A stretch of DNA of 24,000 nt from Candidatus Calditenuis fumarioli (GTDB lineage Archaea; Thermoproteota; Nitrososphaeria_A; Caldarchaeales; Calditenuaceae): contig JANVYR010000002.1 of NCBI GenBank assembly GCA_030059665.1, forward strand, positions 161,261-185,260, read 5' to 3'. A program made the position numbers and the translations under genes. How positions within the stretch are numbered: the stretch's first letter is position 1; every line of letters begins with the position of its first letter. This document shows, piece after piece, positions 14 to 20,735 of this stretch. The notes under the pieces were generated by a model. The model was not told the DNA's origin and did no database searches. It saw only the letters and a program-made list of their open reading frames with translations.

Positions 14-3000
14 TCACTTGGCCGGAGTCTTCGGCGGTGGCGGGGCGTAGACGCCTAGCCTCCTTCCTCTCCACCAGCGGTACTCGCTGATGATGATCGC
101 CAGCACTATCACCAGCAGTATGATGCCGATCGCGAGCGCCAGGAGCGTCGCCAGCGACATCGGTATGCCGAGGACCTCGACGTAGACCGGCAGCCTGATC
201 TCGACGACATCGCCTCTCCTGAGCTGGTCGAGCGTCACGCTAGCGGAGCCGGTGAAGCCCTTGTACGTCGCCCTGACCTCGTAGGAGGCCGGAGCGAGCT
301 TCTCGAACCTCGCGGAGCCGGCGGCGTCAGCGGATGCGGTCCCGACCGTGGTGCCAGCCCTGAGCAGCTGGACCGATGCGCCCTGGAGTCCCTGGCCGAG
401 CTCTCCGACGACCCTGACAGTCAGCGCGAAGAGCTGGGCGAGCACGGAGATCTCCTTCCTCGCGACCGAGATCGGCTCGTCTCTAGCGTAGACCTCGACG
501 CCCTCAACGGAGACCCTGACGGTGTATGTTATCGGCGAGTCCTCGGTTCCAAGCGGTACCCTCTCGAAGACGGCCTTGCCGTCAGGTCCTGTGGTCTTCG
601 GTTGAGCCCTACCGAAGGTTACCACCGCGCCTCCGACCGGCCTTCCCTGGGCGTCGACGGCGTTGATCACCACGTCGTCGACCGGCATCTGGAGCGTCCT
701 GCCGCCGAGGAGCCTCGTCCTAATGCCGTCAGCTGTGTCGGTCAGCGTCACCTGGACCGAGGTACCGTATGTCGGGCTCGTGTACTTGACCGAGAATGTC
801 ACCGGTGCGCCGGTGTATAGCGCAGTGATGGTGATCACGTTGCCAGCGACCTCACGCCTGAAGTAGTAGGCCTCAGGTGTGATCGAGACGTCTCCAGGCG
901 CTATCGAGAGCGGCCTGCCTCTGAGGTCGGTCACCTCGAAGGACAGGTCTGTGAACGGCATCGATGCCTCGACCTGCACGGTACCGACGTTGACGGTGCT
1001 GATGTCGAAGGTCCTCTTGAAGATCGTTCCGGCATCACCGAACCTCACCTCGAGCTCGTAGACTCCTCTCGGCAGCCTGTTGATCGTGAAGGTCCCTCTG
1101 GACATGCCGACGCCCTCCGTGAACCTCAGCGACAGCTCAGTAGTTGCACCGGTCTTCTTGTAAACAAAGACCTCGAACCTTCTGAGTATGTCGGGTGGCA
1201 GCGTCTTCCCTCCGTAGTTCAGCAGCGCCTTGAAGTCGAAGACCGCGGTTGTCACGTCCCTGTGGACTCCCCTGCTGACCGGATCGCTCGCGCTTACGAC
1301 CCTGTCAGGCAGCTTCAGTCCGATCGCGGCCTCGGAGTGCGGCACCTCAAGCGTCTTGGCGGCTGCGTCGGTCTCGTCGAAGTCGCTGTCGTAGACCTTC
1401 ACGTGCCTCGGCAGCGGAGCTGTCTCGTCCCTGAACGGCCATATCGGCCAGAGGTTGCCGTTCGCGTTGTTCGGGTTCGGATCGGTTGCGAGCCAGTAGA
1501 CCCTGATGATCAGTCTGAGCGGGTCTCTGACACCGGAGTTGTCTACGGTATCGTCGTTGTTGGCGTCGTAGTTCCAGGTGCCGAAGGTCAGGTTCATGAT
1601 GGCGGTGTACCCAGCTCCACCGATCGGTCTCGGATCCAGCAGCTTGCCCCTGTGGTACATGTACAGCGTCTGGAGGTCGATCGGTCTTGCGGTCCAGGAG
1701 TTGTTGGCGGTGTAGCTCCAGCCAGCTATCCTGCCGCTGGCCCTGTCGACCAGCTCGACGAAGGCTCCAGCGAGCGGCCTGCCGTTGAAGTCGATCGCCC
1801 TAACCGTCACGGCGGCGTAGTTGACGGTGATCACGAACGGCTTGCTGATCGTCCTTGCCTGGTCCTTGTCGTAGTAGGTGCAGAGCCCTACGCAGAACCC
1901 GTCTGGGTCGAACCAAGTGCTGATCGTCGTTATCGCCCAGTGCGTCGGCTCCTCGTCCGGGAAGTAGGCGAAGCTGCTCCTCCTGGTGGGCGTGTTGTAG
2001 GTCTGCTCGACCAACTGCACGTTCAGACCCTGCATCCAGGTCTTCCACTTGGCGTCGTCGGGCTCGTTGACGTAGGCCGGCGGCTCGACTCTGTACCTAA
2101 CCGTTAGCCCTGCCCAGAAGATCTTCCTCACGTTCGTCGGATCGCTGTCGAAGGTCACGAAACCGTATGCGTCGCTAACTCCGCTTAGAACGCCGGTGTC
2201 GACCGATGTGCCGAGCTTCCTGGCCTGCAGCCTTACGGTGTAGCCCTGGACCGGGTAGGCGGTGGGCACTCCCTGCTCGTCCCTCCACGTCAGCAGCACG
2301 ACGCTCAGCTGCCTCGCGGCGTTCAGCATTATCGGCACGGTCACCCTGCTGGTGGTCACGGTCTTGAGCGGGCCGTCGCCGAAGGTCTCGTTGTTCAGGA
2401 CGAACTGCGTCGCGACCAGGTCATTCAGCCAGGTGACGTCGGAGTGGTTGGCGCTGAAGACGTACTTCCAGGTGGTGTTCATGAACCTCGGTCCGGGTAT
2501 CTTGGAGAAGTCCACTATGCCGTCGGCGTCGGTGGAGCTGATCAGCGTGACCCTCTTCTCGCACGGGAAGGCGCTGTCCTCGCAGGCCTCGTAGTCCTGT
2601 GGAGCAGGCGGCCAGCTACTCCAAAGGCTCTGGTCCCACCAGGTCGTCACGTTCGGGTAGTAGATCCAGAGGTTGAGGTTGTGGACGGCGTGCGCCGGGT
2701 CAGTGGAGTTGCTCAGCGTGAACATGAACCTGACGTCGTAGACCTCTGAAGCGCCGAACTCCTTCACCGGACCCTTGTCGAGGACGTAGTTCTCGCTGTA
2801 GACGACCGCGCTCTTCCAGACGACGTTGAACTGGTAGTGGAACTCCTCCTTAGTGTTTGCCAGGCTTATCGCGTGAGTCCGATCAACGCCTCCGGTAGGC
2901 AGTATGCCGACGTTGTGACCTATGCCGGACTCGATCCCGTACGTCTCGTTCAGGAACCCGCTGGTCGGGAGCAGCAGCAGCCCCTCGTAACCGGAGATGG

Positions 3001-6000
3001 TGAAGCTCTTGATGGTGCCGTCGGACTTCGTGTACCACCTAGCGTACTTGAGCTGTCCATATCTGTACGACAGCGGGTCTGTGGAGGTTCCGGGCACGCC
3101 AGTGGCGTTGTTGGCGTCGAAGGCGAAGTCGCTGGACGGCATCAGGTAAATGTACCTCTCGGTGACCGTCATGTTCAGCCCGAAGACGTCACGGAGTATC
3201 AGCTTGGCGGGCCACGGAGGCACCTGCACGAAGATCTGATGTGTGGCAGAATCGTGGCAGTTACTGCCTACGCTTCTTACGCATCGGAACGTGATGTTGA
3301 TCCTGTCCCACTTGATTTCCTTAAACCTCTGCGGGCTATCTGGATCGGCGACCCTCTTGGTCTCCCACTCCCACCAGAACGTGTAGGTCGTGTTGGTGGT
3401 CCTTTTATCAGACTTCACGGTAGTTATAGTTCTGTTGACGGGACCTCCGGACATCGCGGATATGTCAATCCTCGATGTGACGTTCAGGTTGACGATCCAG
3501 GCCTCTATCAGCGCGTTCTCTAGCGGCGCACCTCCCTTGTCGATGGCCCTCGGCTTAATGAAAGCAACCGGCAGCGGAGCCCTCAGCGTATCCTTGTCGT
3601 AGATGATAATCTTGTAGCCGAATGCGTCCTGCAGCTTCACCCACTTGCTGTAGAACGTCTGCTGCTTGTGGAGATCAGCGTTGGGCTGGAGCGTGAAGTT
3701 CAATGCAGGCCATACCTTGTTGGGCAGCGCCGATTTGTTGTAGAACTTGTCGACGACGAAGCTCATGTTGGTCGTCAGCCTGACGTCCTGAAGCCTGTAG
3801 CTGCCGTTCCACCAGAGGTAGGAGTAGTCCTGCGGACCTGGCCTCGTGTTGTCTCCGTATAGGATCGTCTTGTACTCGAGCGATCCGGTCCACTTGGAGA
3901 AGTTCCCGAGACCGAGCGTCATGGAGACGAAGTTGTCGTTGATGATGTCGAACCTGACGTCGCCGATCCGCAGATCGCCGTCGATCATGTCCAGGAACCA
4001 GTGGAGGGCCCAGGTGTTCAGGTTGACCTCTAACCTGTCGCAAACGGTGAACCTCAGGTCCCTGTTGAACTCCCTCAGGACGACCCTCGTATCAGCCTTC
4101 TCATGGACCTCCTGCGGCAGCATGGACTCGGATCCGGGCATCCAGTGGATGTACGACTCGTACGTCCTGTTACCGGACTCACCTGGCCAGAAGCCGTAAC
4201 CAGGCGACGCGTCTCTGTAGTTGTATCCTCCTAATGTTCTCGGCGCCACCGTCGTCACGGTGATGTTGTATATCGCAGGCGGCATCTGGTAGAAGATGTA
4301 CTCGTTGGTGGCGTTCTTGTGCTGTATGACGTAGCTGAAGAACTGGGCAACCCTGACGCTGGTGTTCCACCTCTGGAAGTCGAAAATGTTGCCCTGGCCG
4401 GCGGGCACCACGCCGAGCCTCTCCGCCAGAGATCCGTCACGGATGGCGTAAGGCCACGGATCCATCGTCTCCAGGAAGTACCAGGGCTTCCTCGCCGGGT
4501 CGCTGATGTTGTATCCCACCCACGACACCGTGACGTTCAGCCTCGGTATCGCAACGGTTCCCTGGAAGTCGAAGGTCTTGAAGACGAAGTCGGTGATCAG
4601 GGCCCTGACCTTGATCGGTGCGTGGAAGTCGCCCTCGACCGGTATCGAGACCTTGCCGTCCTGCGCTGCAATCCTTGTGTTATCAGGGAGTATCGCCTCG
4701 AGGAACGGGACGTCAACTCCCTTCCAGTAGAGCCTCGTGAACGTCAGGGTACCTCCGGTAACGATGAAGTCCTTAGCTCCGTCGGTTCCCGTGTTGAACC
4801 TCACCTCGGAGTTGGTGGCGGGGTCGATCATCCAAGCAGGCGTCTGGGAGAGCGGCCTGTCCTGGCAGTCGACGAAGAGGACCTTCAGCTTGAAGACGCT
4901 AACTGTCTTGTCGACGAAGACTGTCCTGACCAGCTTGTTGATCTCGCCGGAGTTCTCGTAGATAGTTACACCAGCGTACTGGACCCTTATGCCGTACATC
5001 AGGTCCTCTGGGACCTGGAAGGCGACCCAGACGTACTCAGGCGCCGGAGATCCGAGGAGCGCGACGGAGATGTTCAGCCTCCAGAGGAATGGCCACGATA
5101 CCGGTCCAACCTGCTCGTAGGCGTACTTTCCATCGATGGGCGACGGCGATACCAGCCTGTATGCCTTCAGCTCAACCGGGCCTCCGGTCTCCCTTAGCAG
5201 CCAGATCCTCACGTCGCTCGGGTTCAGGACGTTGCCCTCGTTGTCCCTTACCGTTATCACGATGTCGCTGACGTTGGCGACGAGGAGGAGCTTGCCGTCA
5301 AGATCGAATGTTAAGGTCCCAAATATCGGGTCAACTACAGACCCCGTGTTGTTCTCAACCCTCCCTACCAGAGGACCTCCTCCGCTCGATGTACCCAGCC
5401 TGACCAGTCTCGGAGCTGATGTCCTGGAACCGCTGTAGATCTCCGGATAAATTGGTGTTGGACCCGAAGTCCACGGATCGGGCCATTCAGATGCACTCTT
5501 GAGCGCCACCAGGTACGGGTTCCTCAGGAAGAAGACTCCGACCGTCTGAGATGCTCCTCCGTAGCTGTCCATGAACCCTCCGGAGTACTGGATCTCTATC
5601 CTGAGACCGTTGTACGGGCCTGGATCATCGGATATGCTCCTCGTCTTCAGGTAATCGTTCACCGCGACCTTCGTGGGATCGTTGGCAGTGAGGTCAGCGG
5701 TTCCGGAATAGTACCTGGAAGTGTAAGTCTCGTCCCTCGCGAACCTCCCCTCTTGGAAGACCTTGATGTTTCCGAATTTGCCCACCAGGTACATCCACAT
5801 CGTGGCGTTCGGAACCCTCAGGTACGTCCTGAACTGCGGTAGGGATCCTGGCCATGCGTGACCGTTGGCCGTCAGGGCGAATCCGTCACCCGGAATTCCG
5901 AACGGCTCCTCAGTAGTTCCCACCTGGTTCTGGAGGTAGTATGCGTTGCCGTCCTTGTCCCTGAGGTTGAACTTGCATGTTGCCAGGAAGAGCGAGGAGT

Positions 6001-7426
6001 TGAAGGTGCTGATTCTCCATCCAAAGTTCCTGGGGTCGTAGACGGTGCCGTTAACCATCAGGTCGTCGTCCCTGACGCCGCACCTCCAGTAGAAGACGGT
6101 GGAGTTGAGGAATATCGCCAGCGGGATCGAGTGACCGCCGCTAACGTAAGGCTGTGTGGTGTAGTTGTAGTTGAGGTTGAAGGCCTCGAGGAGCTGCGGG
6201 ACGACATCAGAATAGAAGCCACCGGTCGGAATACCGTCCCTGAGAGCAGGTGGTGTTGCAGTAACAAGGTGCGAGTTGTCGAGCGTCGAGAAACCATCGG
6301 TATCCCTGTTCGCGAAGAACGTCGTGTTCACCAGTACCGTCTCCCACCAGACCCTGACAGTTACGTTGAGGTGCGCCTGCAGGTTAACTGAAGGATAGAA
6401 GTCATCGCGATAAGGCCTCTTCAATCCGAGGTGTATCGCCTCAAGCGGTATCGGTACCAGCTCGTTGGTCTTGTATCGAGTCCCGTAAACCGGGTACATC
6501 TCGTTGGTGGTCCTCGGATCGTACAGACCGTATCCTGATCCGTCGCCCTTGGTGACGAAGGCCCTTATCAAAGACGCTCCTCCTGTGGTTATGTTCATCT
6601 CGTAGATCTTGACCTGGGCGTAGCTCAGGTTGTCCTTCGTGCTGTACCAAGTGTGGACGTGGAATGGTGTGAAGACCACGGATGCGTTGGCAACCCAAGC
6701 GTTCCTTGCGTACCTTGTAGAGCCTAATACGTACTCAGACTGGGTGCCAAAGGCCGTCGAGAAGTTCGCCGGCGACATGGCGACGAAGTCAACAGGTCCA
6801 GCTCTACCACCGGTGTTGGACATCAGGCTGGGACCGTAGTTCGAGGTCCAAGGCAACCACACCGCTACCACGGTCCCGTTCATCAGGACGGTCGCGTTGG
6901 TCCTCCAATGCCCCTGACCAATCTTACTTTGGATGTATCTGGTCGATGCGTTGATCACCATCATGTACACGATTATTCCGCTGTATAGGCTCCCGGCACC
7001 GACCTCGGTACCGTCGTAGCTCTTCGCCTTAACAACCACAGTCACGTTCGACCATGTATCGGGCCACTCAATCCTCACGAACCCGGTCGCGTTGATATCG
7101 AACTTGCGAGGATAGAAAATGGCGTCGTTTAACGGAGCACCCCTCTCGTGGTAGACCTCTACGAAGTACCAGTTATCCGTCAGGTTGTACCTGTCCGCGA
7201 AGCCAGTATAGGAACCATCAGGGCACGCCCTCATCCGATGCGCGGCCGGGAGTGTCGTAGCACCGCTGCATTCTACTCCGTTCCAGCTCGGCGTCACTAT
7301 CTTCAGCCATGCCGAGTACGTCCCCTCCGCTTGGACAGACGGTATCACGTACAGGGCCGCCGGTATCGCCAGCAGCACGGCCAGCAGCGCCACGATTCCG
7401 ACCCTTGCCAGACCACGGTTGTCCAA
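14..7426 (-). CDS. Giant (2470 aa) secreted surface protein with C-terminal membrane anchor; probably N-glycosylated, S-layer/adhesin-like, with a stalk of carboxypeptidase-regulatory-like beta-sandwich modules
   Basis: Uninterrupted 7.4-kb ORF. TTG start at 7426 with GGTGA (7436-7440) 9 nt upstream. N-terminal signal peptide MDNRGLARVGIVALLAVLLAIPAALYVIPSVQA/EG. C-terminal hydrophobic span IPMSLATLLALAIGIILLVIVLAIIISEY followed by a basic, Pro-rich tail. About 45 N-x-S/T sequons by hand count. Repeated modules of the type VxxxDxxGxPLxGAxV...Y.V (e.g. LTVRVVGELGQGLQGASVQLL...ASYEVRATYKGF) are concentrated in the last ~600 aa. Confidence 0.85.
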   Translation of the reverse strand: MDNRGLARVGIVALLAVLLAIPAALYVIPSVQAEGTYSAWLKIVTPSWNGVECSGATTLPAAHRMRACPDGSYTGFADRYNLTDNWYFVEVYHERGAPLNDAIFYPRKFDINATGFVRIEWPDTWSNVTVVVKAKSYDGTEVGAGSLYSGIIVYMMVINASTRYIQSKIGQGHWRTNATVLMNGTVVAVWLPWTSNYGPSLMSNTGGRAGPVDFVAMSPANFSTAFGTQSEYVLGSTRYARNAWVANASVVFTPFHVHTWYSTKDNLSYAQVKIYEMNITTGGASLIRAFVTKGDGSGYGLYDPRTTNEMYPVYGTRYKTNELVPIPLEAIHLGLKRPYRDDFYPSVNLQAHLNVTVRVWWETVLVNTTFFANRDTDGFSTLDNSHLVTATPPALRDGIPTGGFYSDVVPQLLEAFNLNYNYTTQPYVSGGHSIPLAIFLNSTVFYWRCGVRDDDLMVNGTVYDPRNFGWRISTFNSSLFLATCKFNLRDKDGNAYYLQNQVGTTEEPFGIPGDGFALTANGHAWPGSLPQFRTYLRVPNATMWMYLVGKFGNIKVFQEGRFARDETYTSRYYSGTADLTANDPTKVAVNDYLKTRSISDDPGPYNGLRIEIQYSGGFMDSYGGASQTVGVFFLRNPYLVALKSASEWPDPWTSGPTPIYPEIYSGSRTSAPRLVRLGTSSGGGPLVGRVENNTGSVVDPIFGTLTFDLDGKLLLVANVSDIVITVRDNEGNVLNPSDVRIWLLRETGGPVELKAYRLVSPSPIDGKYAYEQVGPVSWPFLWRLNISVALLGSPAPEYVWVAFQVPEDLMYGIRVQYAGVTIYENSGEINKLVRTVFVDKTVSVFKLKVLFVDCQDRPLSQTPAWMIDPATNSEVRFNTGTDGAKDFIVTGGTLTFTRLYWKGVDVPFLEAILPDNTRIAAQDGKVSIPVEGDFHAPIKVRALITDFVFKTFDFQGTVAIPRLNVTVSWVGYNISDPARKPWYFLETMDPWPYAIRDGSLAERLGVVPAGQGNIFDFQRWNTSVRVAQFFSYVIQHKNATNEYIFYQMPPAIYNITVTTVAPRTLGGYNYRDASPGYGFWPGESGNRTYESYIHWMPGSESMLPQEVHEKADTRVVLREFNRDLRFTVCDRLEVNLNTWALHWFLDMIDGDLRIGDVRFDIINDNFVSMTLGLGNFSKWTGSLEYKTILYGDNTRPGPQDYSYLWWNGSYRLQDVRLTTNMSFVVDKFYNKSALPNKVWPALNFTLQPNADLHKQQTFYSKWVKLQDAFGYKIIIYDKDTLRAPLPVAFIKPRAIDKGGAPLENALIEAWIVNLNVTSRIDISAMSGGPVNRTITTVKSDKRTTNTTYTFWWEWETKRVADPDSPQRFKEIKWDRINITFRCVRSVGSNCHDSATHQIFVQVPPWPAKLILRDVFGLNMTVTERYIYLMPSSDFAFDANNATGVPGTSTDPLSYRYGQLKYARWYTKSDGTIKSFTISGYEGLLLLPTSGFLNETYGIESGIGHNVGILPTGGVDRTHAISLANTKEEFHYQFNVVWKSAVVYSENYVLDKGPVKEFGASEVYDVRFMFTLSNSTDPAHAVHNLNLWIYYPNVTTWWDQSLWSSWPPAPQDYEACEDSAFPCEKRVTLISSTDADGIVDFSKIPGPRFMNTTWKYVFSANHSDVTWLNDLVATQFVLNNETFGDGPLKTVTTSRVTVPIMLNAARQLSVVLLTWRDEQGVPTAYPVQGYTVRLQARKLGTSVDTGVLSGVSDAYGFVTFDSDPTNVRKIFWAGLTVRYRVEPPAYVNEPDDAKWKTWMQGLNVQLVEQTYNTPTRRSSFAYFPDEEPTHWAITTISTWFDPDGFCVGLCTYYDKDQARTISKPFVITVNYAAVTVRAIDFNGRPLAGAFVELVDRASGRIAGWSYTANNSWTARPIDLQTLYMYHRGKLLDPRPIGGAGYTAIMNLTFGTWNYDANNDDTVDNSGVRDPLRLIIRVYWLATDPNPNNANGNLWPIWPFRDETAPLPRHVKVYDSDFDETDAAAKTLEVPHSEAAIGLKLPDRVVSASDPVSRGVHRDVTTAVFDFKALLNYGGKTLPPDILRRFEVFVYKKTGATTELSLRFTEGVGMSRGTFTINRLPRGVYELEVRFGDAGTIFKRTFDISTVNVGTVQVEASMPFTDLSFEVTDLRGRPLSIAPGDVSITPEAYYFRREVAGNVITITALYTGAPVTFSVKYTSPTYGTSVQVTLTDTADGIRTRLLGGRTLQMPVDDVVINAVDAQGRPVGGAVVTFGRAQPKTTGPDGKAVFERVPLGTEDSPITYTVRVSVEGVEVYARDEPISVARKEISVLAQLFALTVRVVGELGQGLQGASVQLLRAGTTVGTASADAAGSARFEKLAPASYEVRATYKGFTGSASVTLDQLRRGDVVEIRLPVYVEVLGIPMSLATLLALAIGIILLVIVLAIIISEYRWWRGRRLGVYAPPPPKTPAK

Positions 7427-7636: not shown

Positions 7637-8144
7637 TCACTGGTCACGTGCGCCCCCCATCCCGAGCCCCCTCGCGACCTCCTCGACCAGCCTCCTCACC
7701 TCGCCCAGCGCGTCCTCCACGTCCTCCCTCGTAGCCAGGCCTTCGTAGGAGTTAACGTGCATCGAGCTCGCCAGCTTGAACGCTGTCCTGACCCAGCTCC
7801 AGGGCCACCTCGTTCTTGTGGGCCCAGAGATCGGCGTGCGACTCCAGCCTAAGACCCTTCCTCGCCATAGCGTGAGCCCTCACCGCCAGCGCGCAGGCCC
7901 CCCAGACCTTCTCTCCCGTCTGCCTCAGGTCTCCCCTGCTGAGCTCCTCCGCCGCCCGCTCAAGCAGCTGCCGGGCACCCTCGAGGTACTTCCTCCAGGC
8001 CTCGCGCGGGTCCTCATCTTTCGTCAGCAGCTCGAACACGAACTCCTCGACCGTCTGTCCAGCCCTCCTCGCCCTCTCCCTGAGCTCGTCGACCACCACC
8101 CTGGGCAGGGCCAAGGCCGTCGCTTCGGGCGCTTCTCCCGCCAC
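7637..8144 (-). pseudogene. PaREP1-family protein gene (four-helix, HEPN-like) interrupted by a single-nucleotide frameshift
   Basis: Frame A (8144-7752) reads LPRVVVDELRERARRAGQTVEEFVFELL...YLEGARQLLERAAEELSRGDLRQTGEKVWGACALAVRAHAMARKGLRLESHADLW, then stops after ELGQDSVQAGELDAR. The +1 frame continues without a stop as AFKLASSMHVNSYEGLATREDVEDALGEVRRLVEEVARGL to TGA at 7637-7639. That matches the C-terminal A..(L/M)H.N(F/S)YEG motif I remember for PaREP1. Total length is 508 nt (3n+1). Confidence 0.6.
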
Positions 8145-8245: not shown

Positions 8246-8941
8246 TCAGACCCTCGTGTATATCTCGACTCCCAGCTCCATAGCAGTCTTCACGGCGTTG
8301 TCGGTAGCGAACGGCGTCACGAAGATCAGCCTGTCGGGTCTCTTCCCGGTCTTCCGCTCGTAGAGCTTCGCCTTCCTGTACAGGGTGACGACGTCTGAGG
8401 GCCTCACCTGGGACGATACCTCGATCAGCAGCGTCTTCCCGTCCTTCACCGCGACGTCGACCTCCACTGGGCTCGGGAACCCGAAGACCTCTCCTCCCTC
8501 ATCGAACGCCGTCCACCTCTCGACCTTCAGGCCCAGCTCCTTCTCGAGGATTCCCTTCAGTCCCTCCCTGAACGCTTCCTCGGACATCAGACCCCACCTG
8601 GCTCCCAAAGCCGAGATCTGCCTGTTGACCGCTTCGAACCCCTTGTTCATGTCCTCCCTGAGTCTGTTCATGTCCTCCCGTAGCTTTGCAATCTCCTTGT
8701 CATGCCTCTCGAACCCCCTGATCATGTCCTCCCTAAGCCTGTTCATGTCTTCCCTGAGCCTCGCAATTTCCTGCTCGTGTCTGTCAAGCCTCTTCAGGAT
8801 CTCGATTATGTGGGATTCGTGCCTGTCGAGTCTCTTCAGGATCTCGTCCAACCCAATTAATCCTGCAACTGCGTACCTGAACTCCTCGTCCTCCCTGAGC
8901 AGCTTCAGGATCCTCGACTTCAGCCTCTCCCTCGCGGCCAA
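8246..8941 (-). CDS. Paralogue A (231 aa): conserved N-terminal domain + heptad coiled coil + C-terminal PD-(D/E)XK-like domain; uncharacterised
   Basis: TTG start at 8941 with a TATA-like box about 26 nt upstream. N-terminus is EEFRYAVAGLIGLDEILKRLDRHESHIIEILKRLDRHE. The centre has REDMNRL heptads. The C-terminus reads FGFPSPVEVDVAVKDGKTLLIEVSSQV...RLIFVTPFATDNAVKTAMELGVEIY, a restriction-endonuclease-like D...E-x-S pattern. It resembles what I remember as DUF3782 plus DUF1626/PDDEXK_10; not verified. Confidence 0.8.
   Translation of the reverse strand: MAARERLKSRILKLLREDEEFRYAVAGLIGLDEILKRLDRHESHIIEILKRLDRHEQEIARLREDMNRLREDMIRGFERHDKEIAKLREDMNRLREDMNKGFEAVNRQISALGARWGLMSEEAFREGLKGILEKELGLKVERWTAFDEGGEVFGFPSPVEVDVAVKDGKTLLIEVSSQVRPSDVVTLYRKAKLYERKTGKRPDRLIFVTPFATDNAVKTAMELGVEIYTRV
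8634..8783. repeat. Intragenic tandem duplication, 2 x 75 bp (about 80 percent identical), with a nested 21-bp heptad repeat
   Basis: TCGAACC recurs at 8634 and 8709 and the following 68 nt align with ~16 mismatches. The units encode EIAKLREDMNRLREDMNKGFE and EIARLREDMNRLREDMIRGFE. GTTCATGTCCTCC repeats at a 21-bp period inside each unit. Confidence 0.8.
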
Positions 8942-8965: not shown

Positions 8966-8973
8966 AGATATAA
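8966..8973 (-). promoter_or_regulatory. TATA-like box (minus-strand GTTATATC) for paralogue A
   Basis: 25-32 nt upstream of TTG 8941. The same motif sits at the same spacing upstream of paralogue B (13638-13645), followed in both by GAAGGnAGTGACGGnTTG. Suggests a leaderless or near-leaderless mRNA. Confidence 0.4.
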
Positions 8974-9170
8974 CTGAGTAGGTGCACCGTCGATCCTTGA
9001 TGGGCCAAAGCCCACCGCGCCCCGCACGTGAGCCGTCTCTCCCGCCGATCGGGGCATCGCAGCCCTCCGCTGTCTGCGGTGTGCAGCAAGCACCCCGTTG
9101 GGAAGGTGGACCCAGCTCGCATAGAACCGCGTGCGAACGTTCTTAACGCGGACGAAACCTCTCCGAGCCG

Positions 9171-12624: not shown

Positions 12625-12689
12625 GAGGTCAGCCGAGAATACCGATCGGGCGGGGGTAGCCAAGCCAGGTCAACGGCGCCGGCCTCAAG

Positions 12690-12705
12690 ATCCGCGCGAG
12701 GCGAA
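12690..12705 (+). other. tRNA intron 1, 16 nt, at the canonical 37/38 position (boundary ambiguous by 1 nt)
   Basis: 16 nt (ATCCGCGCGAGGCGAA) separate the anticodon loop from the 3' half of a perfect 5-bp anticodon stem. I could not draw a canonical bulge-helix-bulge here: the 32-35 helix has two mismatches, so the motif may be relaxed. Confidence 0.6.
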
Positions 12706-12719
12706 AGCCGGTCCCGCAG

Positions 12720-12737
12720 GCCAGACATCGGGCGGAA
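12720..12737 (+). other. tRNA intron 2, 18 nt, non-canonical position inside the variable arm
   Basis: A clean hBHBh' motif can be drawn. The central 4-bp helix is CCGC (12714-12717) with GCGG (12732-12735). The 3-nt bulges are AGG (12718-12720) and AAG (12736-12738). Flanking helices are C12721-C12722 with G12730-G12731, and T12712-C12713 with G12739-G12740. Cutting after the second bulge nucleotide gives the variable arm TCCCGCAG/GGGTTC. Confidence 0.65.
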
Positions 12738-12949
12738 GGGTTCGTGGGTTCGAATCCCACCCCCCGCACTTAGAGAACTTCGCTATGTGTCCCATCGACG
12801 GGGTCAACGACCGCACGGAAACCTCGCAGGATAAGCCGCGCAGAGCCCGAAAGTCCCAGGATAGGGAGCGGTGATCCGAGAGAGGGAGTTGAGAGCTAAT
12901 GCGGAGTGAAGGATCCGGGTTCAGGATCGAGTGGGTTGCACAGGTGCGG

Positions 12950-13612
12950 CTACGCCCTCGTGTATATCTCGACTCCGAGCTCCATAGCGGTCTTCACGGC
13001 GTTGTCGGTAGCGAACGGCGTCACGAAGATCAGCCTGTCGGGTCTCCTCCCGGTCTTCCGCTCGTAGAGCTTCGCCTTCCTGTACAGGGTGACGACGTCT
13101 GAGGGCCTCACCTGGGACGATACCTCGATCAGCAGCGTCTTCCCGTCCTTCACCGCGACGTCGACCTCCACTGGGCTCGGGAACCCGAAGACCTCTCCTC
13201 CCTCATCGAACGCCGTCCACCTCTCGACCTTCAGGCCCAGCTCCTTCTCGAGGATTCCCTTCAGTCCCTCCCTGAAGGCTTCCTCGGACATGAGGCCCCA
13301 CCTGGCTCCCAAAGCCGAGATCTGCCTGTTGACCGCTTCGAACCCCTTCATCATGTCCTCCCTGAGCCTGTTCATGTCCTCCCGTAGCTTCTCTATTTCC
13401 TGCCATATCCTCCCGATCTCCTGCTCTATCCTCAGGAACCTCTCCTCGTGTCTGTCCAGCCTCTTCAGGATCTCGATTATGTGGGATTCGTGCCTGTCGA
13501 GTCTCTTCAGGATCTCGTCGAGTCCTATCAGTCCTGCAACAGCATATCTGAACTCCTCATCCTCCCTGAGCAGCTTCAGGATCCTCGACTTCAGCCTCTC
13601 CCTCGCGGCCAA
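12950..13612 (-). CDS. Paralogue B (220 aa): same family as paralogue A, with a different central coiled-coil cassette
   Basis: Protein matches paralogue A except for the central segment, K->R, N->M and the last residue. I place the start at TTG 13610-13612. This is the position homologous to the paralogue A start and has the same upstream GTTATATC box. The 308-aa form in the ORF track (to 13876) adds an unconserved, non-protein-like extension that overlaps the glyA start. Confidence 0.8.
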   Translation of the reverse strand: MAARERLKSRILKLLREDEEFRYAVAGLIGLDEILKRLDRHESHIIEILKRLDRHEERFLRIEQEIGRIWQEIEKLREDMNRLREDMMKGFEAVNRQISALGARWGLMSEEAFREGLKGILEKELGLKVERWTAFDEGGEVFGFPSPVEVDVAVKDGKTLLIEVSSQVRPSDVVTLYRKAKLYERKTGRRPDRLIFVTPFATDNAVKTAMELGVEIYTRA

Positions 13613-13637: not shown

Positions 13638-13645
13638 GATATAAC
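13638..13645 (-). promoter_or_regulatory. TATA-like box (minus-strand GTTATATC) for paralogue B
   Basis: Same motif and spacing (about 26 nt to TTG 13612) as upstream of paralogue A. Confidence 0.4.
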
Positions 13646-16002: not shown

Positions 16003-17073
16003 TCAGATGTCCTTCATGAAGTCCTCGAGGTAGTCGAGGTCTCCGTCCGCTCCAGAGCCTCGGATCTCCGCGGGCTGCTGCACCTCATGCGGTCTCTGTG
16101 GTATCCTGAACATCGGTCCCGTGCTGCCCTGCGAGTAGCTGCCACCGCTCATGATGATCGAGACGTGCAGCGTCGACCCGTACCGCCTGTCAACCCTCGC
16201 CCCCCAGATCACGAGACCCTCCTCGCCCATCAGCTCCGAGACGATCTCCGCAGGCCTCGTGGCCTCCTTCAGCTTCATGTCCTCTCCTCCGCCGACGTGG
16301 ACGATGGCCGCGCTGATCCCCTCGATCGTCCCCTCCAGCAGCGGCGACTGGAGCGCGTTGAAGGTCGCCTCCTCCGCCCTGTTCGGGGAGCTGCTCTTGC
16401 CGAGGCCTATCGTGGCGATCCTCCCCCTGCTCACCACCGTCTTGAAGTCCTCGAAGTCGATGTTGATCAGGCTCGGCCGCACCAGCGACTCCGTGATGCT
16501 CACGACCATGTTGTTGATCACCTCGTCGGCCAGCGAGAAGGCGGTGTTCAGGTCGTACTGCGGGTAGAGCTCGAGGAGCCTGTTGTTGTCTATGACCACC
16601 ACCGTGTTGCAGTACCGCTGTAGCTCCTCAAGCCCCCTCATCGCTATCCTCCTCCTCACGGCCCCCTCGAACCTGAACGGCAGCGTCACCACGCCCACGA
16701 CTATCAGCCCCTGCTCCTGCGCCAGTTTGGCCACGAACGGGGCCGCTCCGGTCCCGGTCCCTCCGCCGAGCCCCGCAGCGATGAAGACAAGGTCGGCGTC
16801 CTCCAGCGCTTTCCTCAGGTCCTCCGCGGACTCCTCAGCCGCCATCCTGCCGAGCTCCGGGTTTCCGCCGGTTCCGTGGTTCCTCGTGACGGTTGGTCCG
16901 AGCAGAAGCTTCTCGTGGGCCTTGATGAAGCTGAGGTGCTGGAGGTCCGTGTTCATCGCGATGGCGTAGATGTCAGGTACGTTGGCCTCGATCAGCCGGT
17001 GGACCGTGTTGGATCCGGCTCCGCCCACGCCGATGACCTTTATCCTGATGCTGCTGTTCTGGAGCTCACTCAA
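16003..17073 (-). CDS. ftsZ: Cell division GTPase FtsZ (356 aa)
   Basis: [23 protein letters not shown], tubulin signature [29 protein letters not shown], and acidic C-terminal tail [12 protein letters not shown]. The only in-frame start codon upstream of the essential G-box strand is TTG 17071-17073. Confidence 0.92.
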
Positions 17074-17215
17074 CGCTCAGCCTCGCCTCCGTTCTTATGA
17101 AGTCCCTGACCGCCATCCGGATGGCCTCGGCCCTGTTCGGGTAGCGCTTCTTCCTGACGAGCTCGTCGATCGCCTCCAAGTATGCCTCAGGTAGGTGCAC
17201 CGTGACGACCCTCAT
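17066..17215 (-). CDS. Ribbon-helix-helix (CopG/RHH_1) DNA-binding protein, CdrS-like, 49 aa, overlapping the ftsZ start
   Basis: [43 protein letters not shown] is a textbook RHH (beta strand, then helix, then the RxEAIR helix). ATG 17215 is preceded by GGGTGAG. The stop TGA 17066-17068 overlaps the ftsZ TTG by 8 nt (GTTGAGTGA). The 238-aa ORF-track form upstream of this ATG is R/H/Q-rich low-complexity sequence. Confidence 0.75.
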
Positions 17216-18375: not shown

Positions 18376-18768
18376 ATGGTTCCGGGCAGGAGACCTTCCG
18401 CGGCGAGGGAGGAGGTGCTTGAGGAGCTCGAGAGGTTCGTGAGGATCCTGAACGAATCCGGCGCCGTCGTCGTGGTCGAGGGCGAGAGCGACAGGAGGGC
18501 CCTCGTCGAGTCCGGAGTCTCCGTGAGGGTGCTGACGCTCGCGGAGTTCGAGCGTGAGGTCGAGGATATGCCTGGTCAGGAGGTGGAGCTCTTGACGGAC
18601 CTCGACCGGCAGGGCGAGGAGCACTTCCGGAGGCTCGTTGGCAGATACGGTGGCGTCGTGAGGTTCACCACTCAGGCCCGGGACTACCTCAGGAGCACCA
18701 CGTCCTACAGGATGGGCATGAGGAGCGTCTACGAGCTGCTGCTGTTCTACCGGAGGAACGCTCTCTAG
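18376..18768 (+). CDS. Small Toprim-domain protein (RNase M5 / primase-like Toprim fold, 130 aa)
   Basis: Toprim glutamate context VVVVEGESDRRAL and the DxD context VELLTDLDRQGEE. ATG start. The size matches stand-alone archaeal Toprim proteins. Confidence 0.7.
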   Translation: MVPGRRPSAAREEVLEELERFVRILNESGAVVVVEGESDRRALVESGVSVRVLTLAEFEREVEDMPGQEVELLTDLDRQGEEHFRRLVGRYGGVVRFTTQARDYLRSTTSYRMGMRSVYELLLFYRRNAL

Positions 18769-20024: not shown

Positions 20025-20735
20025 TCAGAGCTCCAGCGTCTCCCTTATCTCCCTGCCCAGCACGAGCCTGATCCCGTTCCTCCCCGCGAGCTCCCTCAGG
20101 TACGAGCCGATCTCCTCCGGCACCGAGCCCACCAGGAGGAGCACCAGCAGCGCCCTCCTGCCGTACCTCTCCTCGACCATCGAGACCCTGCTCCTGAGCT
20201 TCTCGACCTCCGACTCGGCCTGTTCGCGCGTTCCGATGTAATTCGTGATCTCGCCGACCACGAGCGGTTCCTCGCAAAAGGCGTCGATATCAACGACCTT
20301 GCCGTCCACGGCGAAGTGCTTGACGTCAACCCTCGCGTCGGGGTACCCCATCTCGTCGAGCAGGACCTCGATGAAGGCCCGGGCCGTGGCCTCGAAGGTG
20401 ACGCCGAGCATCTCCCTCAGCTCCCTGAACCCTGACTTGACGTACTTCCAGAACCTCTCTTGGCCGGCCTCGAGTCGCCTCACGCTCTCCCACAGCCTCT
20501 CCTGTCCCTCCCTAAGCGCTCTGACCTCCTCCCACAGCCTGTTAACATTCTCCCACAGTCTGTTCTGGTTCTCCTCCAGCCTGTCGAGCCTCTTCAGTAT
20601 CTCGAGTATGTGGGACTCATGTCTGTCAAGCCTCTTGAGTATCTCTGACAGGCCGAGATAACCTGCGACGGTGTACCTGAACTCGACGTCCTTCTCCAGC
20701 AGCTCGATGAACTCCCTCTTCAGCTTCTCGGCCAT
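20025..20735 (-). CDS. Paralogue C (236 aa): divergent member of the same coiled-coil / PD-(D/E)XK-like family
   Basis: ATG start. N-terminus VEFRYTVAGYLGLSEILKRLDRHESHILEILKRLDRLE matches A and B, with nucleotide similarity in that segment as well. The centre has NRLWE(N/E)V-type heptads. The C-terminus VVDIDAFCEEPLVVGEITNYIG...ALLVLLLVGSVPEEIGSYLRELAGRNGIRLVLG has the same D...E-x-(S/T) pattern but low identity. Confidence 0.8.
   Translation of the reverse strand: MAEKLKREFIELLEKDVEFRYTVAGYLGLSEILKRLDRHESHILEILKRLDRLEENQNRLWENVNRLWEEVRALREGQERLWESVRRLEAGQERFWKYVKSGFRELREMLGVTFEATARAFIEVLLDEMGYPDARVDVKHFAVDGKVVDIDAFCEEPLVVGEITNYIGTREQAESEVEKLRSRVSMVEERYGRRALLVLLLVGSVPEEIGSYLRELAGRNGIRLVLGREIRETLEL

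Follow-up and report, generated by a model that had tools for sequence, protein, structure and literature searches.

The best-described relatives of the proteins considered here belong to the DUF3782 + PDDEXK_10 family (PF12644 + PF07788; formerly DUF1626; COG5493), which has thousands of members across thermophilic archaea. For DUF1626, Knizewski et al. 2007 (PMC1913061) predicted a nuclease fold, an N-terminal coiled coil and a change of the catalytic Lys to Thr, and proposed that the Lys has moved to the next helix, a relocation that the same work documents in other active PD-(D/E)XK families. Its profiles linked DUF1626 to DUF91 (NucS) and to Hjc/Hje. DUF506 and DUF790 are cases in which a compensating Lys is supplied from another element. 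The stalk of the family is the subject of Hartmann et al. 2016 (PMC4786415): crenarchaeal DUF3782 members contain nonad 'MATKDD' beta-layers, and the same Pfam stalk family includes the Tcar0761-type alpha/beta coiled coils (5APZ), which have no nuclease head and whose nonads form trimeric beta-layers. An experimental function or a biochemical assay was not found for any member in the searchable literature. NucS/EndoMS combines an N-terminal DNA-binding domain with an ExK motif, whereas the archaeal Holliday junction resolvases Hjc/Hje represent a minimal PD-(D/E)XK fold, Hjc keeping ExK and having no stalk. Card1/Can2/Cdn1, finally, are cyclic-oligoadenylate-activated CRISPR ancillary nucleases.

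Three proteins, A, B and C, are encoded on the minus strand of the window, that is, the whole 24-kb stretch of DNA analysed here. The features are:

7752-8144, minus strand: PaREP1 (HEPN-T clade) ORF, 130 aa, 101 nt downstream of A on the same strand
8246-8941, minus strand: copy A, 231 aa, TTG start; cap, 7/7/11-residue stalk with a 75-nt tandem repeat, and PDDEXK_10 head with residues E160, D162, E174-V-S176, S177, R189 and K190
8780-8845, minus strand: stalk block EILKRLDRHESHIIEILKRLDR of A; the same block lies at 13451-13516 in B and at 20580-20645 in C
8967-8974, minus strand: TATA-like GTTATATC, 26-33 nt upstream of the start of A; putative promoter element, judged by its sequence
12950-13612, minus strand: copy B, 220 aa, TTG start; also 220 aa in the NCBI record
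13638-13645, minus strand: identical GTTATATC upstream of B; likewise a putative promoter element
20025-20735, minus strand: copy C, 236 aa, ATG start; EFRYTVAG cap, unbroken heptad stalk (residues ~29-110) and PD-(D/E)XK-like head (residues ~111-236) with residues E115, D149, D151, E162-I-T164, K179 and R183
20028-20405, minus strand: head domain of C, from a sister family of PDDEXK_10 without a Pfam model

A longer reading frame for gene B (308 aa, extending to 13876) was rejected, as it is merely an in-frame upstream extension of the 220-aa protein.

The three copies are genuinely paralogous. Every copy combines an EFRY(A/T)VAG cap with the stalk block EILKRLDRHESHI.EILKRLDR; a coiled coil and, at the C-terminus, an alpha/beta head are likewise common to all three. 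The residues following EFRY(A/T)VAG are invariant in the pattern G-L-x-E-I-L-K-R-L-D-R-H-E-S-H-I-x-E-I-L-K-R-L-D-R, and the strands of the head read EVDVAV...LLIEVSSQV in A and B and VVDIDAF...VVGEITNYIG in C. The similarity is far beyond chance: a whole-length profile comparison of the A family with the C family yields a probability of 99.8% (E 3e-28), and a domain-only hhalign comparison links the head of A to that of C with a probability of 89% (E 2e-6). On the DNA level, A and B are 97% identical across the last 300 nt, which encode the head.

Judged by their Pfam matches, copies A and B are ordinary DUF3782 + PDDEXK_10 proteins. Copy A matches DUF3782 (1.4e-25, 89.6 bits, cut-off 24.4) as well as PDDEXK_10 (5.5e-20, 71.5 bits, cut-off 21.2), and copy B likewise exceeds both cut-offs (DUF3782: 1.7e-26, 92.6 bits; PDDEXK_10: 2.3e-20, 72.7 bits). 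Copy C, whose protein is an exact match to the NCBI hypothetical protein QXO17_06890 of a Nitrososphaerota archaeon, has no Pfam match above noise, and neither DUF3782 nor PDDEXK_10 is found at E <= 1. Neither model matches any of 26 close relatives of C; among 84 remote representatives of the C family, PDDEXK_10 is matched by none and DUF3782 by five. The homology of C to DUF3782/PDDEXK_10 proteins is visible at profile level only, and the cap, the stalk and the topology of the head are the same. Copy C belongs to a small sister family of the same architecture, with a head too diverged for the Pfam model; 1.84 billion proteins yielded 128 representatives of it at 50% identity (E <= 1e-3). With A as query, 2326 proteins scored E <= 1e-3, and species-representative genomes contain 282 confirmed relatives; the range takes in Caldarchaeales, Bathyarchaeia, Thermoproteales, Desulfurococcales, Korarchaeia and others. 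These numbers contradict an earlier sequence-only reading of the window, which had described A, B and C as a three-member uncharacterised family. Its pointer to DUF3782/DUF1626 is right for A and B, and its remark that such proteins have no known function agrees with the searchable literature. We regard A, B and C as a real but largely known kind of protein. We note that the automated names of these proteins ('nuclease with TOPRIM domain', 'YoxC', 'DUF342', 'diadenylate cyclase') are not reliable and reflect coiled-coil composition.

The C-terminal heads of all three copies adopt, according to the structure models, a PD-(D/E)XK-like fold, as the sequence-only reading had proposed. The AlphaFold models are confident (pLDDT 88 for the head of C, 86 for full-length A), and a Foldseek search of the PDB with both heads returns the C-terminal domain of NucS/EndoMS as the best match (2vld, 5gke, 5gkj; probability ~1.0), followed by other PD-(D/E)XK proteins (probability 0.98-1.0 throughout). 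The best match of copy A is EndoMS 5gkj (E 2.4e-4). Sequence identity to NucS/EndoMS amounts to 12-22%, with a query-normalised TM-score of 0.3-0.46; the Pfam model NucS_C matches A weakly (E 0.03) and C not at all. Further matches of the heads of A and C include Card1 (6xl1), Cdn1 (9u49), AF1548 (1y88) and VC1899 (1xmx). The Card1/Can2/Cdn1 group (6xl1, 6wxw, 9u49; VC1899 1xmx) resembles the heads in shape, with a query-normalised TM-score of up to 0.55. Hjc is absent from the top Foldseek matches of both heads. With NucS/EndoMS as the closest solved folds, and with the profile links of 2007 to DUF91 (NucS) and Hjc/Hje (PMC1913061), the proteins might be housekeeping nucleases of DNA repair or recombination that act as NucS/EndoMS- or Hjc-like dimers on mismatches or branched DNA. 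The synteny of C between species (71% identity) would suit such a role. However, a cap and a coiled coil take the place of the N-terminal DNA-binding domain of NucS, ExK is not conserved (ExS or ExT is found instead), the distribution is patchy and multi-copy with pseudogenisation, and a hypervariable stalk length is unusual in a core repair enzyme. A repair nuclease is in our estimate quite unlikely.

The heads retain a set of conserved acidic and basic residues. In the A family, D162 (motif II, on beta-2), E174 and S177 are invariant, and E160, R189 and K190 are conserved at 90% or more. In the motif I region, E121, E126 and E133 are conserved on the model helix that runs into the stalk (residues 19-136). 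Among 83 close relatives within the C family, E162, T164 and E155 are found in all, E115 (on alpha-1 in the model) in 82, Glu or Asp at position 149 in 82, R183 in 81 and K179 in 79. Position 151 is Asp in 61 of the 83 and Asn in 22, and Asn in about half of the representatives. The motif III pattern (D/E)-x-K is broken in every copy: whereas its Glu (E174 in A, E162 in C) never varies, the position of the Lys is held by Ser in A (S176) and B and by Thr in C (T164), a substitution that had already been recognised from the sequence. Within the C family, Thr occupies this position in 83/83 close relatives and in 83/92 motif-bearing representatives. The DUF1626 description of 2007 likewise has Thr, whereas A and B have Ser. 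In a third head type, attached to the same cap and LWEEV stalk, the motif is a canonical G(D/E)AK, and its Lys aligns with T164 of C. Candidate substitutes for the Lys are found on the predicted helix after beta-3, 16-17 residues past the Glu, namely K190 (with R189) in A and K179 (with R183) in C. The hhalign register that pairs beta-1 of C with beta-2 of A, skipping 11 residues, was rejected because of the strand-for-strand equivalence of the two models and the alignment to the (D/E)AK head.

The Ser or Thr at the Lys position would also be consistent with an inert nucleic-acid binder or tether, whose head only binds DNA and whose stalk bridges or organises it, for example as a chromatin or segregation factor. 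The replacement of D151 by Asn in about half of the C-type representatives and the location of C in a conserved housekeeping neighbourhood near FtsZ agree with such a role, as do weak NCBIfam matches of the stalk to Sul12a (6e-5), ASRP and Rad50/SMC. These matches are, however, all far under their cut-offs (23 bits versus 150) and lie on the coiled coil, so they are compositional and the corresponding identities were rejected. In an inert binder, the retention of three to four invariant acids together with the invariant Thr/Ser and the helix Lys/Arg would be unexpected; relocation of the Lys is known in other active PD-(D/E)XK families (PMC1913061), and the gene is dispensable, B having decayed in a sister species. 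An inert binder is unlikely. With its acids and the Lys/Arg of the following helix conserved, the head appears likelier to be an active nuclease than an inert binder; part of the C-type family may be inactive, since many of its members carry Asn for the second beta-2 acid.

The N-terminal part consists of a cap and a coiled-coil stalk. The cap is a ~30-residue helical segment (LKxxxLxLLxxDxEFRYxVAG), and the AlphaFold model of A has a short helix (residues 2-17) directly followed by the long stalk helix (residues 19-136). The conserved N-terminal string noticed earlier is real, but what was called an 'N-domain' is not a globular domain. The stalks of A, B and C consist of plain heptads or of 7/7/11 repeats and lack the 'MATKDD' nonads of crenarchaeal members: the motif [ILVM]AT[KR]x[DE] is absent from all three and present in 1/366 collected relatives. 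Searches of the PDB by sequence and profile (A family, C family, N-cap profile and third head type) gave coiled-coil or noise matches only, and a PHROGs search gave coiled-coil noise alone, with no match for the heads when searched separately. PF28175, listed for some relatives, was discarded as a faint T4SS_LegC2C7 coiled-coil match. Where heads are at least 90% identical, stalk lengths differ between proteins by exact multiples of 7 aa, and the middle stalk of B differs from that of A and is 11 residues shorter.

The stalk block is shared by all three copies. Copies A and B have 21 of 22 codons in common. Copies A and C agree at 21 of 22 amino acids and use the same codon at 11 of 21 positions, compared to 13.4 expected from codon usage. 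A near-identical peptide with fewer shared codons than expected points to selection on the peptide, and recent A-C gene conversion was rejected on the same grounds. One reading that would account for a 22-residue segment kept identical in the old paralogues A/B and C of this lineage despite saturated synonymous sites is co-assembly through this segment. The proteins would then constitute a modular chassis, in which a conserved cap and a variable stalk carry swappable heads (ExS of PDDEXK_10, ExT of the C type, and canonical (D/E)AK have been seen), A/B and C form hetero-oligomers, and the stalk serves as a ruler. Stalk length would in this case set the cutting site of the head relative to a cap-bound target, and the family would be a machine for nucleic-acid processing or defence of a kind not yet described in archaea. 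We consider this reading very doubtful. A general within-genome co-evolution of the first stalk segment of A-type and C-type proteins was rejected: the similar-looking pair comes from different organisms (Infirmifilum and Caldarchaeales), and in loci L059 and L079 the first stalk segments of both types are unlike each other.

The similarity of A and B starts at the TATA-like GTTATATC and stops at the stop codon, such that the duplication spans the putative core promoter and coding sequence only, and flanking repeats are absent; B appears to be a recent duplicate of A. The 84-nt intergenic region upstream of C contains an AT-rich element that is weaker, and a separate promoter for each of the three genes is, going by such elements, only plausible. 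Copy C is syntenic in the sister species, and at the site of B just a decayed head fragment remains there. Both B and C lie directly among housekeeping genes. The presence of three copies within 24 kb, the near-identity of A and B, the position of B 181 nt from an intron-bearing tRNA gene, and TnpB-like transposase genes near some relatives might be taken as signs of an addiction-like element, selfish or mobile, whose copies spread through the genome, as the sequence-only reading had suggested. The confined extent of the A-B duplication and the synteny of C and of the B site in the sister species contradict this suggestion. The window contains no inverted repeats, integrase or transposase, and relatives were found neither on IMG/VR viral contigs nor on PLSDB plasmids nor in GenBank phages. 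Such an element is highly improbable.

Conserved partner genes were not found when the neighbours in 80 related loci were clustered, as no family occurs in more than 7/80 (~9%). The neighbours in other genomes include PIN, AbrB, HEPN and TnpB genes. The ORF downstream of A matches PaREP1 (Pfam, 1.3e-10, 80/115 model positions), and a PaREP1-DUF1626 operon association is listed by Anantharaman et al. 2013 (PMC3710099). The ORF may cooperate with A or just happen to lie beside it: PaREP1 adjoins A but not B or C, and was found next to a family gene in 1/80 related loci (phmmer, with limited sensitivity). This ORF and the neighbours named above would fit a nuclease dedicated to antiviral defence, which might serve type III CRISPR-Cas as an accessory effector or pair with a HEPN/PaREP1 toxin. 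Card1 and Cdn1 among the structural neighbours, the lineage-specific expansion and the fast variation of the stalk are in line with such a function. The same applies to the PADLOC model C3a181 (PDLC01085), a type III-associated cluster of Shah et al. 2018 (PMC6546367), whose match to A spans the full length (3e-28), with further matches to B (1e-26) and, by cap and stalk only, to C (3e-12). Traced to its source, this lead was judged weak, as C3a181 has only 3 members and a borderline score of 25.55 versus a cut-off of 24 (PMC6546367), and its label 'diadenylate cyclase' is ill-suited to the protein. Neither cas genes nor a repeat/CRISPR array are present in the window, and both are likewise absent from the contig flanks that were read; A, B and C have no CARF or other sensor domain, and B and C sit among housekeeping genes. 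Toxin-antitoxin genes are in any case abundant in these genomes, which weighs against a defence function. We rate a dedicated defence nuclease as rather improbable. The 'undescribed system' of the sequence-only reading likewise finds no counterpart in conserved neighbours, in cas genes within the window, or in copies on viruses or plasmids.

For catalysis, oligomeric state, substrate and biological role we infer the following account, which we hold to be probable. Copies A, B and C would be cytoplasmic stalked nucleases, each made up of a cap, a coiled coil of variable length and a NucS-like PD-(D/E)XK head, with an accessory role. The stalk would oligomerise in parallel and thereby gather two or three heads at its C-terminus, where the stalk helix would run into or beside alpha-1, the bearer of the motif I glutamate. 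The metal would be held by the conserved acids (E121/E126, E160/D162 and E174 in A; E115, D149(/D151) and E162 in C), and K190 in A, or K179/R183 in C, would stand in from the following helix for the absent Lys of motif III. DNA is the most likely substrate. The role would be accessory rather than core, for example in conflict and defence or in specialised DNA processing, with copies gained, duplicated and lost and the length of the stalk changing fast. An accessory nature is suggested by the decay of B in the sister species and by the loci with two family ORFs within ~10 kb (8/80), at least two of which (L047 and L049) look as if an assembly gap or a frameshift had divided a single gene.

If the proposed mechanism of a stalked nuclease is right, thermophilic archaea would possess a widespread family of oligomeric nucleases, in which the catalytic lysine lies off the canonical strand and the geometry is set by a fast-evolving coiled-coil stalk. 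The C-type heads and the third, (D/E)AK head type escape Pfam at present and could join the family. The family has stood as a computer prediction since 2007, and even a basic test for activity would fill an old hole in its annotation.

Three paralogues lie on the minus strand of the window, which has a G+C content of about 63% and matches contig JAWBKE010000003.1 of the Nitrososphaerota (Caldarchaeales/'Aigarchaeota') metagenome-assembled genome GCA_038831845.1:

8246-8941, minus strand: paralogue A, 231 aa
12950-13612, minus strand: paralogue B, 220 aa, TTG start
20025-20735, minus strand: paralogue C, 236 aa

The longer ORF for B, reaching 13876, only extends it in frame. Each protein consists of a cap (the N-terminal EFRY helix region), a stalk (the coiled coil) and a head (the C-terminal PD-(D/E)XK-like domain). 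A three-way alignment confirms that EFRY(A/T)VAG, followed by an invariant GL.EILKRLDRHESHI.EILKRLDR, is common to the three, as the sequence-only reading had it, and also recovers the C-terminal strand strings quoted there. The claim that the family has three members is not borne out. A as query retrieves 2326 proteins (E <= 1e-3), annotated as 'DUF3782 domain-containing protein' or 'PD-(D/E)XK nuclease family protein'; their sources are Aigarchaeota, Thermofilum, Infirmifilum and Bathyarchaeia. Among species-representative genomes, 282 relatives were confirmed, in Caldarchaeales, Bathyarchaeia, Desulfurococcales, Thermoproteales, Korarchaeia, Hadesarchaea, Marsarchaeota, Methanomethylicia and others. 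A and B lie far over the Pfam cut-offs for both DUF3782, the stalk family (1e-25 and 2e-26, respectively), and PDDEXK_10, formerly DUF1626 (5e-20 and 2e-20). No PDDEXK_10 match was found for C, for 26 of its close relatives or for 84 remote representatives; the database names of its relatives ('nuclease with TOPRIM domain', 'YoxC', 'DUF342') follow the coiled coil. Profile comparison relates the C family to the A family over the whole length (probability 99.8%) and by the head alone (probability 89%, E 2e-6). An exhaustive search of 1.84 billion proteins with the head of C yielded only 128 representatives at 50% identity; C therefore stands for a small sister family that lacks a model.

The structural part of the sequence-only reading was largely right. 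The model of the head of C (residues 95-236) has a pLDDT of 88 and a pTM of 0.82, and that of full-length A (pLDDT 86) shows a short helix (2-17), one long helix (19-136) and then a C-like head. The two models pair VEVDVAV/LLIEVSS of A with VVDIDAF/VVGEITN of C, in agreement with the register first proposed; an hhalign register that moves the strands by one hairpin was set aside for this strand-for-strand equivalence. A third head type, with a canonical G(D/E)AK motif and with neither a Pfam match nor a PDB relative by sequence, adjoins A-type genes at two related loci:

L013 3841-4845, plus strand: third head type with G(D/E)AK motif, EFRY cap and coiled-coil stalk
L079 1898-2782, minus strand: third head type with EFRY cap, LWEEV heptad stalk and G(D/E)AK motif

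T164 of C aligns to the Lys of this motif, with weak statistics (BLASTP E 0.064; hhalign probability 69.5%, E 4e-5). The strand equivalence in the models together with this alignment therefore puts Ser/Thr at the catalytic-Lys position of the A/B and C heads, as had been claimed. Within the A family D162, E174 and S177 are invariant, E160, R189 and K190 are kept at at least 90%, and helix alpha-1 carries conserved glutamates. Over 83 sequences of the C family, E155, E162 and T164 are present in all 83, E115 and E/D149 in 82, R183 in 81, K179 in 79 and D151 in 61 (Asn in the other 22); at position 151 the remote representatives have Asp about as often as Asn. A conserved Lys is found 16-17 residues past the Glu in both families, a spacing that fits the published proposal of a Lys migration to the next helix (PMC1913061).

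The stalk of C is built of heptads without a break, and that of A of a 25-residue (7+7+11) repeat, seen in the DNA as a tandem repeat of 75 nt; the main difference of B from A is a middle stalk that is 11 residues shorter. Among C-type homologues with heads at least 90% identical, total lengths step by exact multiples of seven (for example 208/215/222/236/250 and 292/299/306/313/320/327/362), and near-identical A-family homologues step by 7, 11, 18 and 25. These steps suggest that coiled-coil repeat units are often gained and lost in frame. This fast, in-register variation of stalk length is the most striking new observation. A 22-residue stalk block is common to A/B and C with 21/22 amino acids identical. 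The same codon is used at only 11/21 positions, versus 13.4 expected from codon usage, and a recent conversion tract was therefore rejected. The syntenic C orthologue of the sister species differs from C in this block, and no block sharing between A-type and C-type was found in other genomes where the two types lie close together. In this lineage the paralogues may share a partner or hetero-oligomerise.

In some representatives of the C-type head the EFRY cap is replaced by another N-terminus (LxEEIxxxPELxxKL...), and some are head-only proteins of 140-160 aa (both kinds are found among P0265, P0272, P0280, P0284, P0291, P0308, P0311, P0313, P0322, P0335, P0347, P0348 and P0351); both kinds are further evidence for a modular architecture.

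The genomic surroundings comprise a surface-type protein (2470 aa), a PaREP1 ORF, GNAT, HtrA, aminotransferases, a tRNA gene with an intron, SHMT, HAD, MscS, GatD, CBS, a signal peptidase, and FtsZ accompanied by a small RHH gene. The window contains no cas gene, repeat array, integrase or inverted repeat.

14-7426, minus strand: giant ORF, 2470 aa, N-terminal hydrophobic segment and C-terminal transmembrane anchor
7752-8144, minus strand: PaREP1/HEPN-T ORF, 130 aa, 101 nt downstream of A
12650-12768, plus strand: intron-bearing tRNA gene, 119 nt (Rfam 42.5 bits; missed by ARAGORN), 181 nt from the 3' end of B
16003-17073, minus strand: FtsZ, paired with the RHH gene; pair kept in the sister species
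17066-17215, minus strand: small ribbon-helix-helix gene, 49 aa (NCBI call), overlapping the FtsZ start
18376-18768, plus strand: 130-aa ORF, sub-threshold match to SUKH-4 immunity protein (E 9e-4, 19.8 bits vs cut-off 25.5)
L091 (sister species) 12713-13275, plus strand: decayed A-type head fragment without cap or stalk, at the B site, adjoining SHMT

The giant ORF probably encodes a surface protein of the S-layer or adhesin-like kind; a smaller gene like it (~950 aa), with faint Big_1/CarboxypepD_reg matches, lies shortly past the window's other end. The weak SUKH-4 match is probably noise. The PaREP1 ORF is extended by about 50 aa at its N-terminus; it matches only 80/115 Pfam model positions, so it may be truncated. 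Operons that pair PaREP1 (HEPN-T) genes with DUF1626 were listed by Anantharaman et al. 2013 (PMC3710099); here, a phmmer comparison of limited sensitivity finds PaREP1 adjacent in only 1 of the 80 related loci. Clustering of all neighbours found no family in more than 7/80 loci, with PIN, AbrB, HEPN, TnpB-like, retropepsin-like and ABC genes recurring at 4-9%. A mobile or selfish element (the latter a speculation of the sequence-only reading) is argued against by the genomic context: C is syntenic in the sister species (GatD-C-Aminotran_5...RHH-FtsZ-HAD-SHMT; orthologue 71% identical), the B site there holds only a decayed head fragment, A-B similarity extends only from the TATA-like GTTATATC (at 26-33 nt before the start) through the stop codon, and both families are absent from IMG/VR viral contigs, PLSDB plasmids and GenBank phages. 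This context speaks for a chromosomal gene family that can be dispensed with and whose copies duplicate and decay.

The family, fold and non-canonical motif have been published before, and we find no support for a new multi-gene system; the sequence-only reading had speculated on an undescribed system. Knizewski et al. 2007 (PMC1913061) assigned DUF1626 to the PD-(D/E)XK superfamily and described its N-terminal coiled coil, frequent Thr at motif III and a basic patch on the motif IV helix; Steczkiewicz et al. 2012 recorded an unknown function and a patchy distribution. Hartmann et al. 2016 (PMC4786415) regarded DUF3782 as the stalk region of these endonucleases and solved the structure of a related coiled coil, a trimeric alpha/beta one; the nonad 'MATKDD' motif described there is absent from A, B and C. 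The Tpen_1359 cluster is type III CRISPR accessory candidate C3a181 (three members, score 25.55 vs cut-off 24) in Shah et al. 2018 (PMC6546367). No experimental study was found in the searchable literature. Only three things are new: neither the C-type head nor the further (D/E)AK head has a model, a single cap and stalk are reused in modular fashion, and stalks vary in heptad steps. As the molecular part of the best explanation we propose, with moderate confidence, that A, B and C are predicted oligomeric stalked nucleases with a relocated lysine; such a nuclease would play an accessory role.
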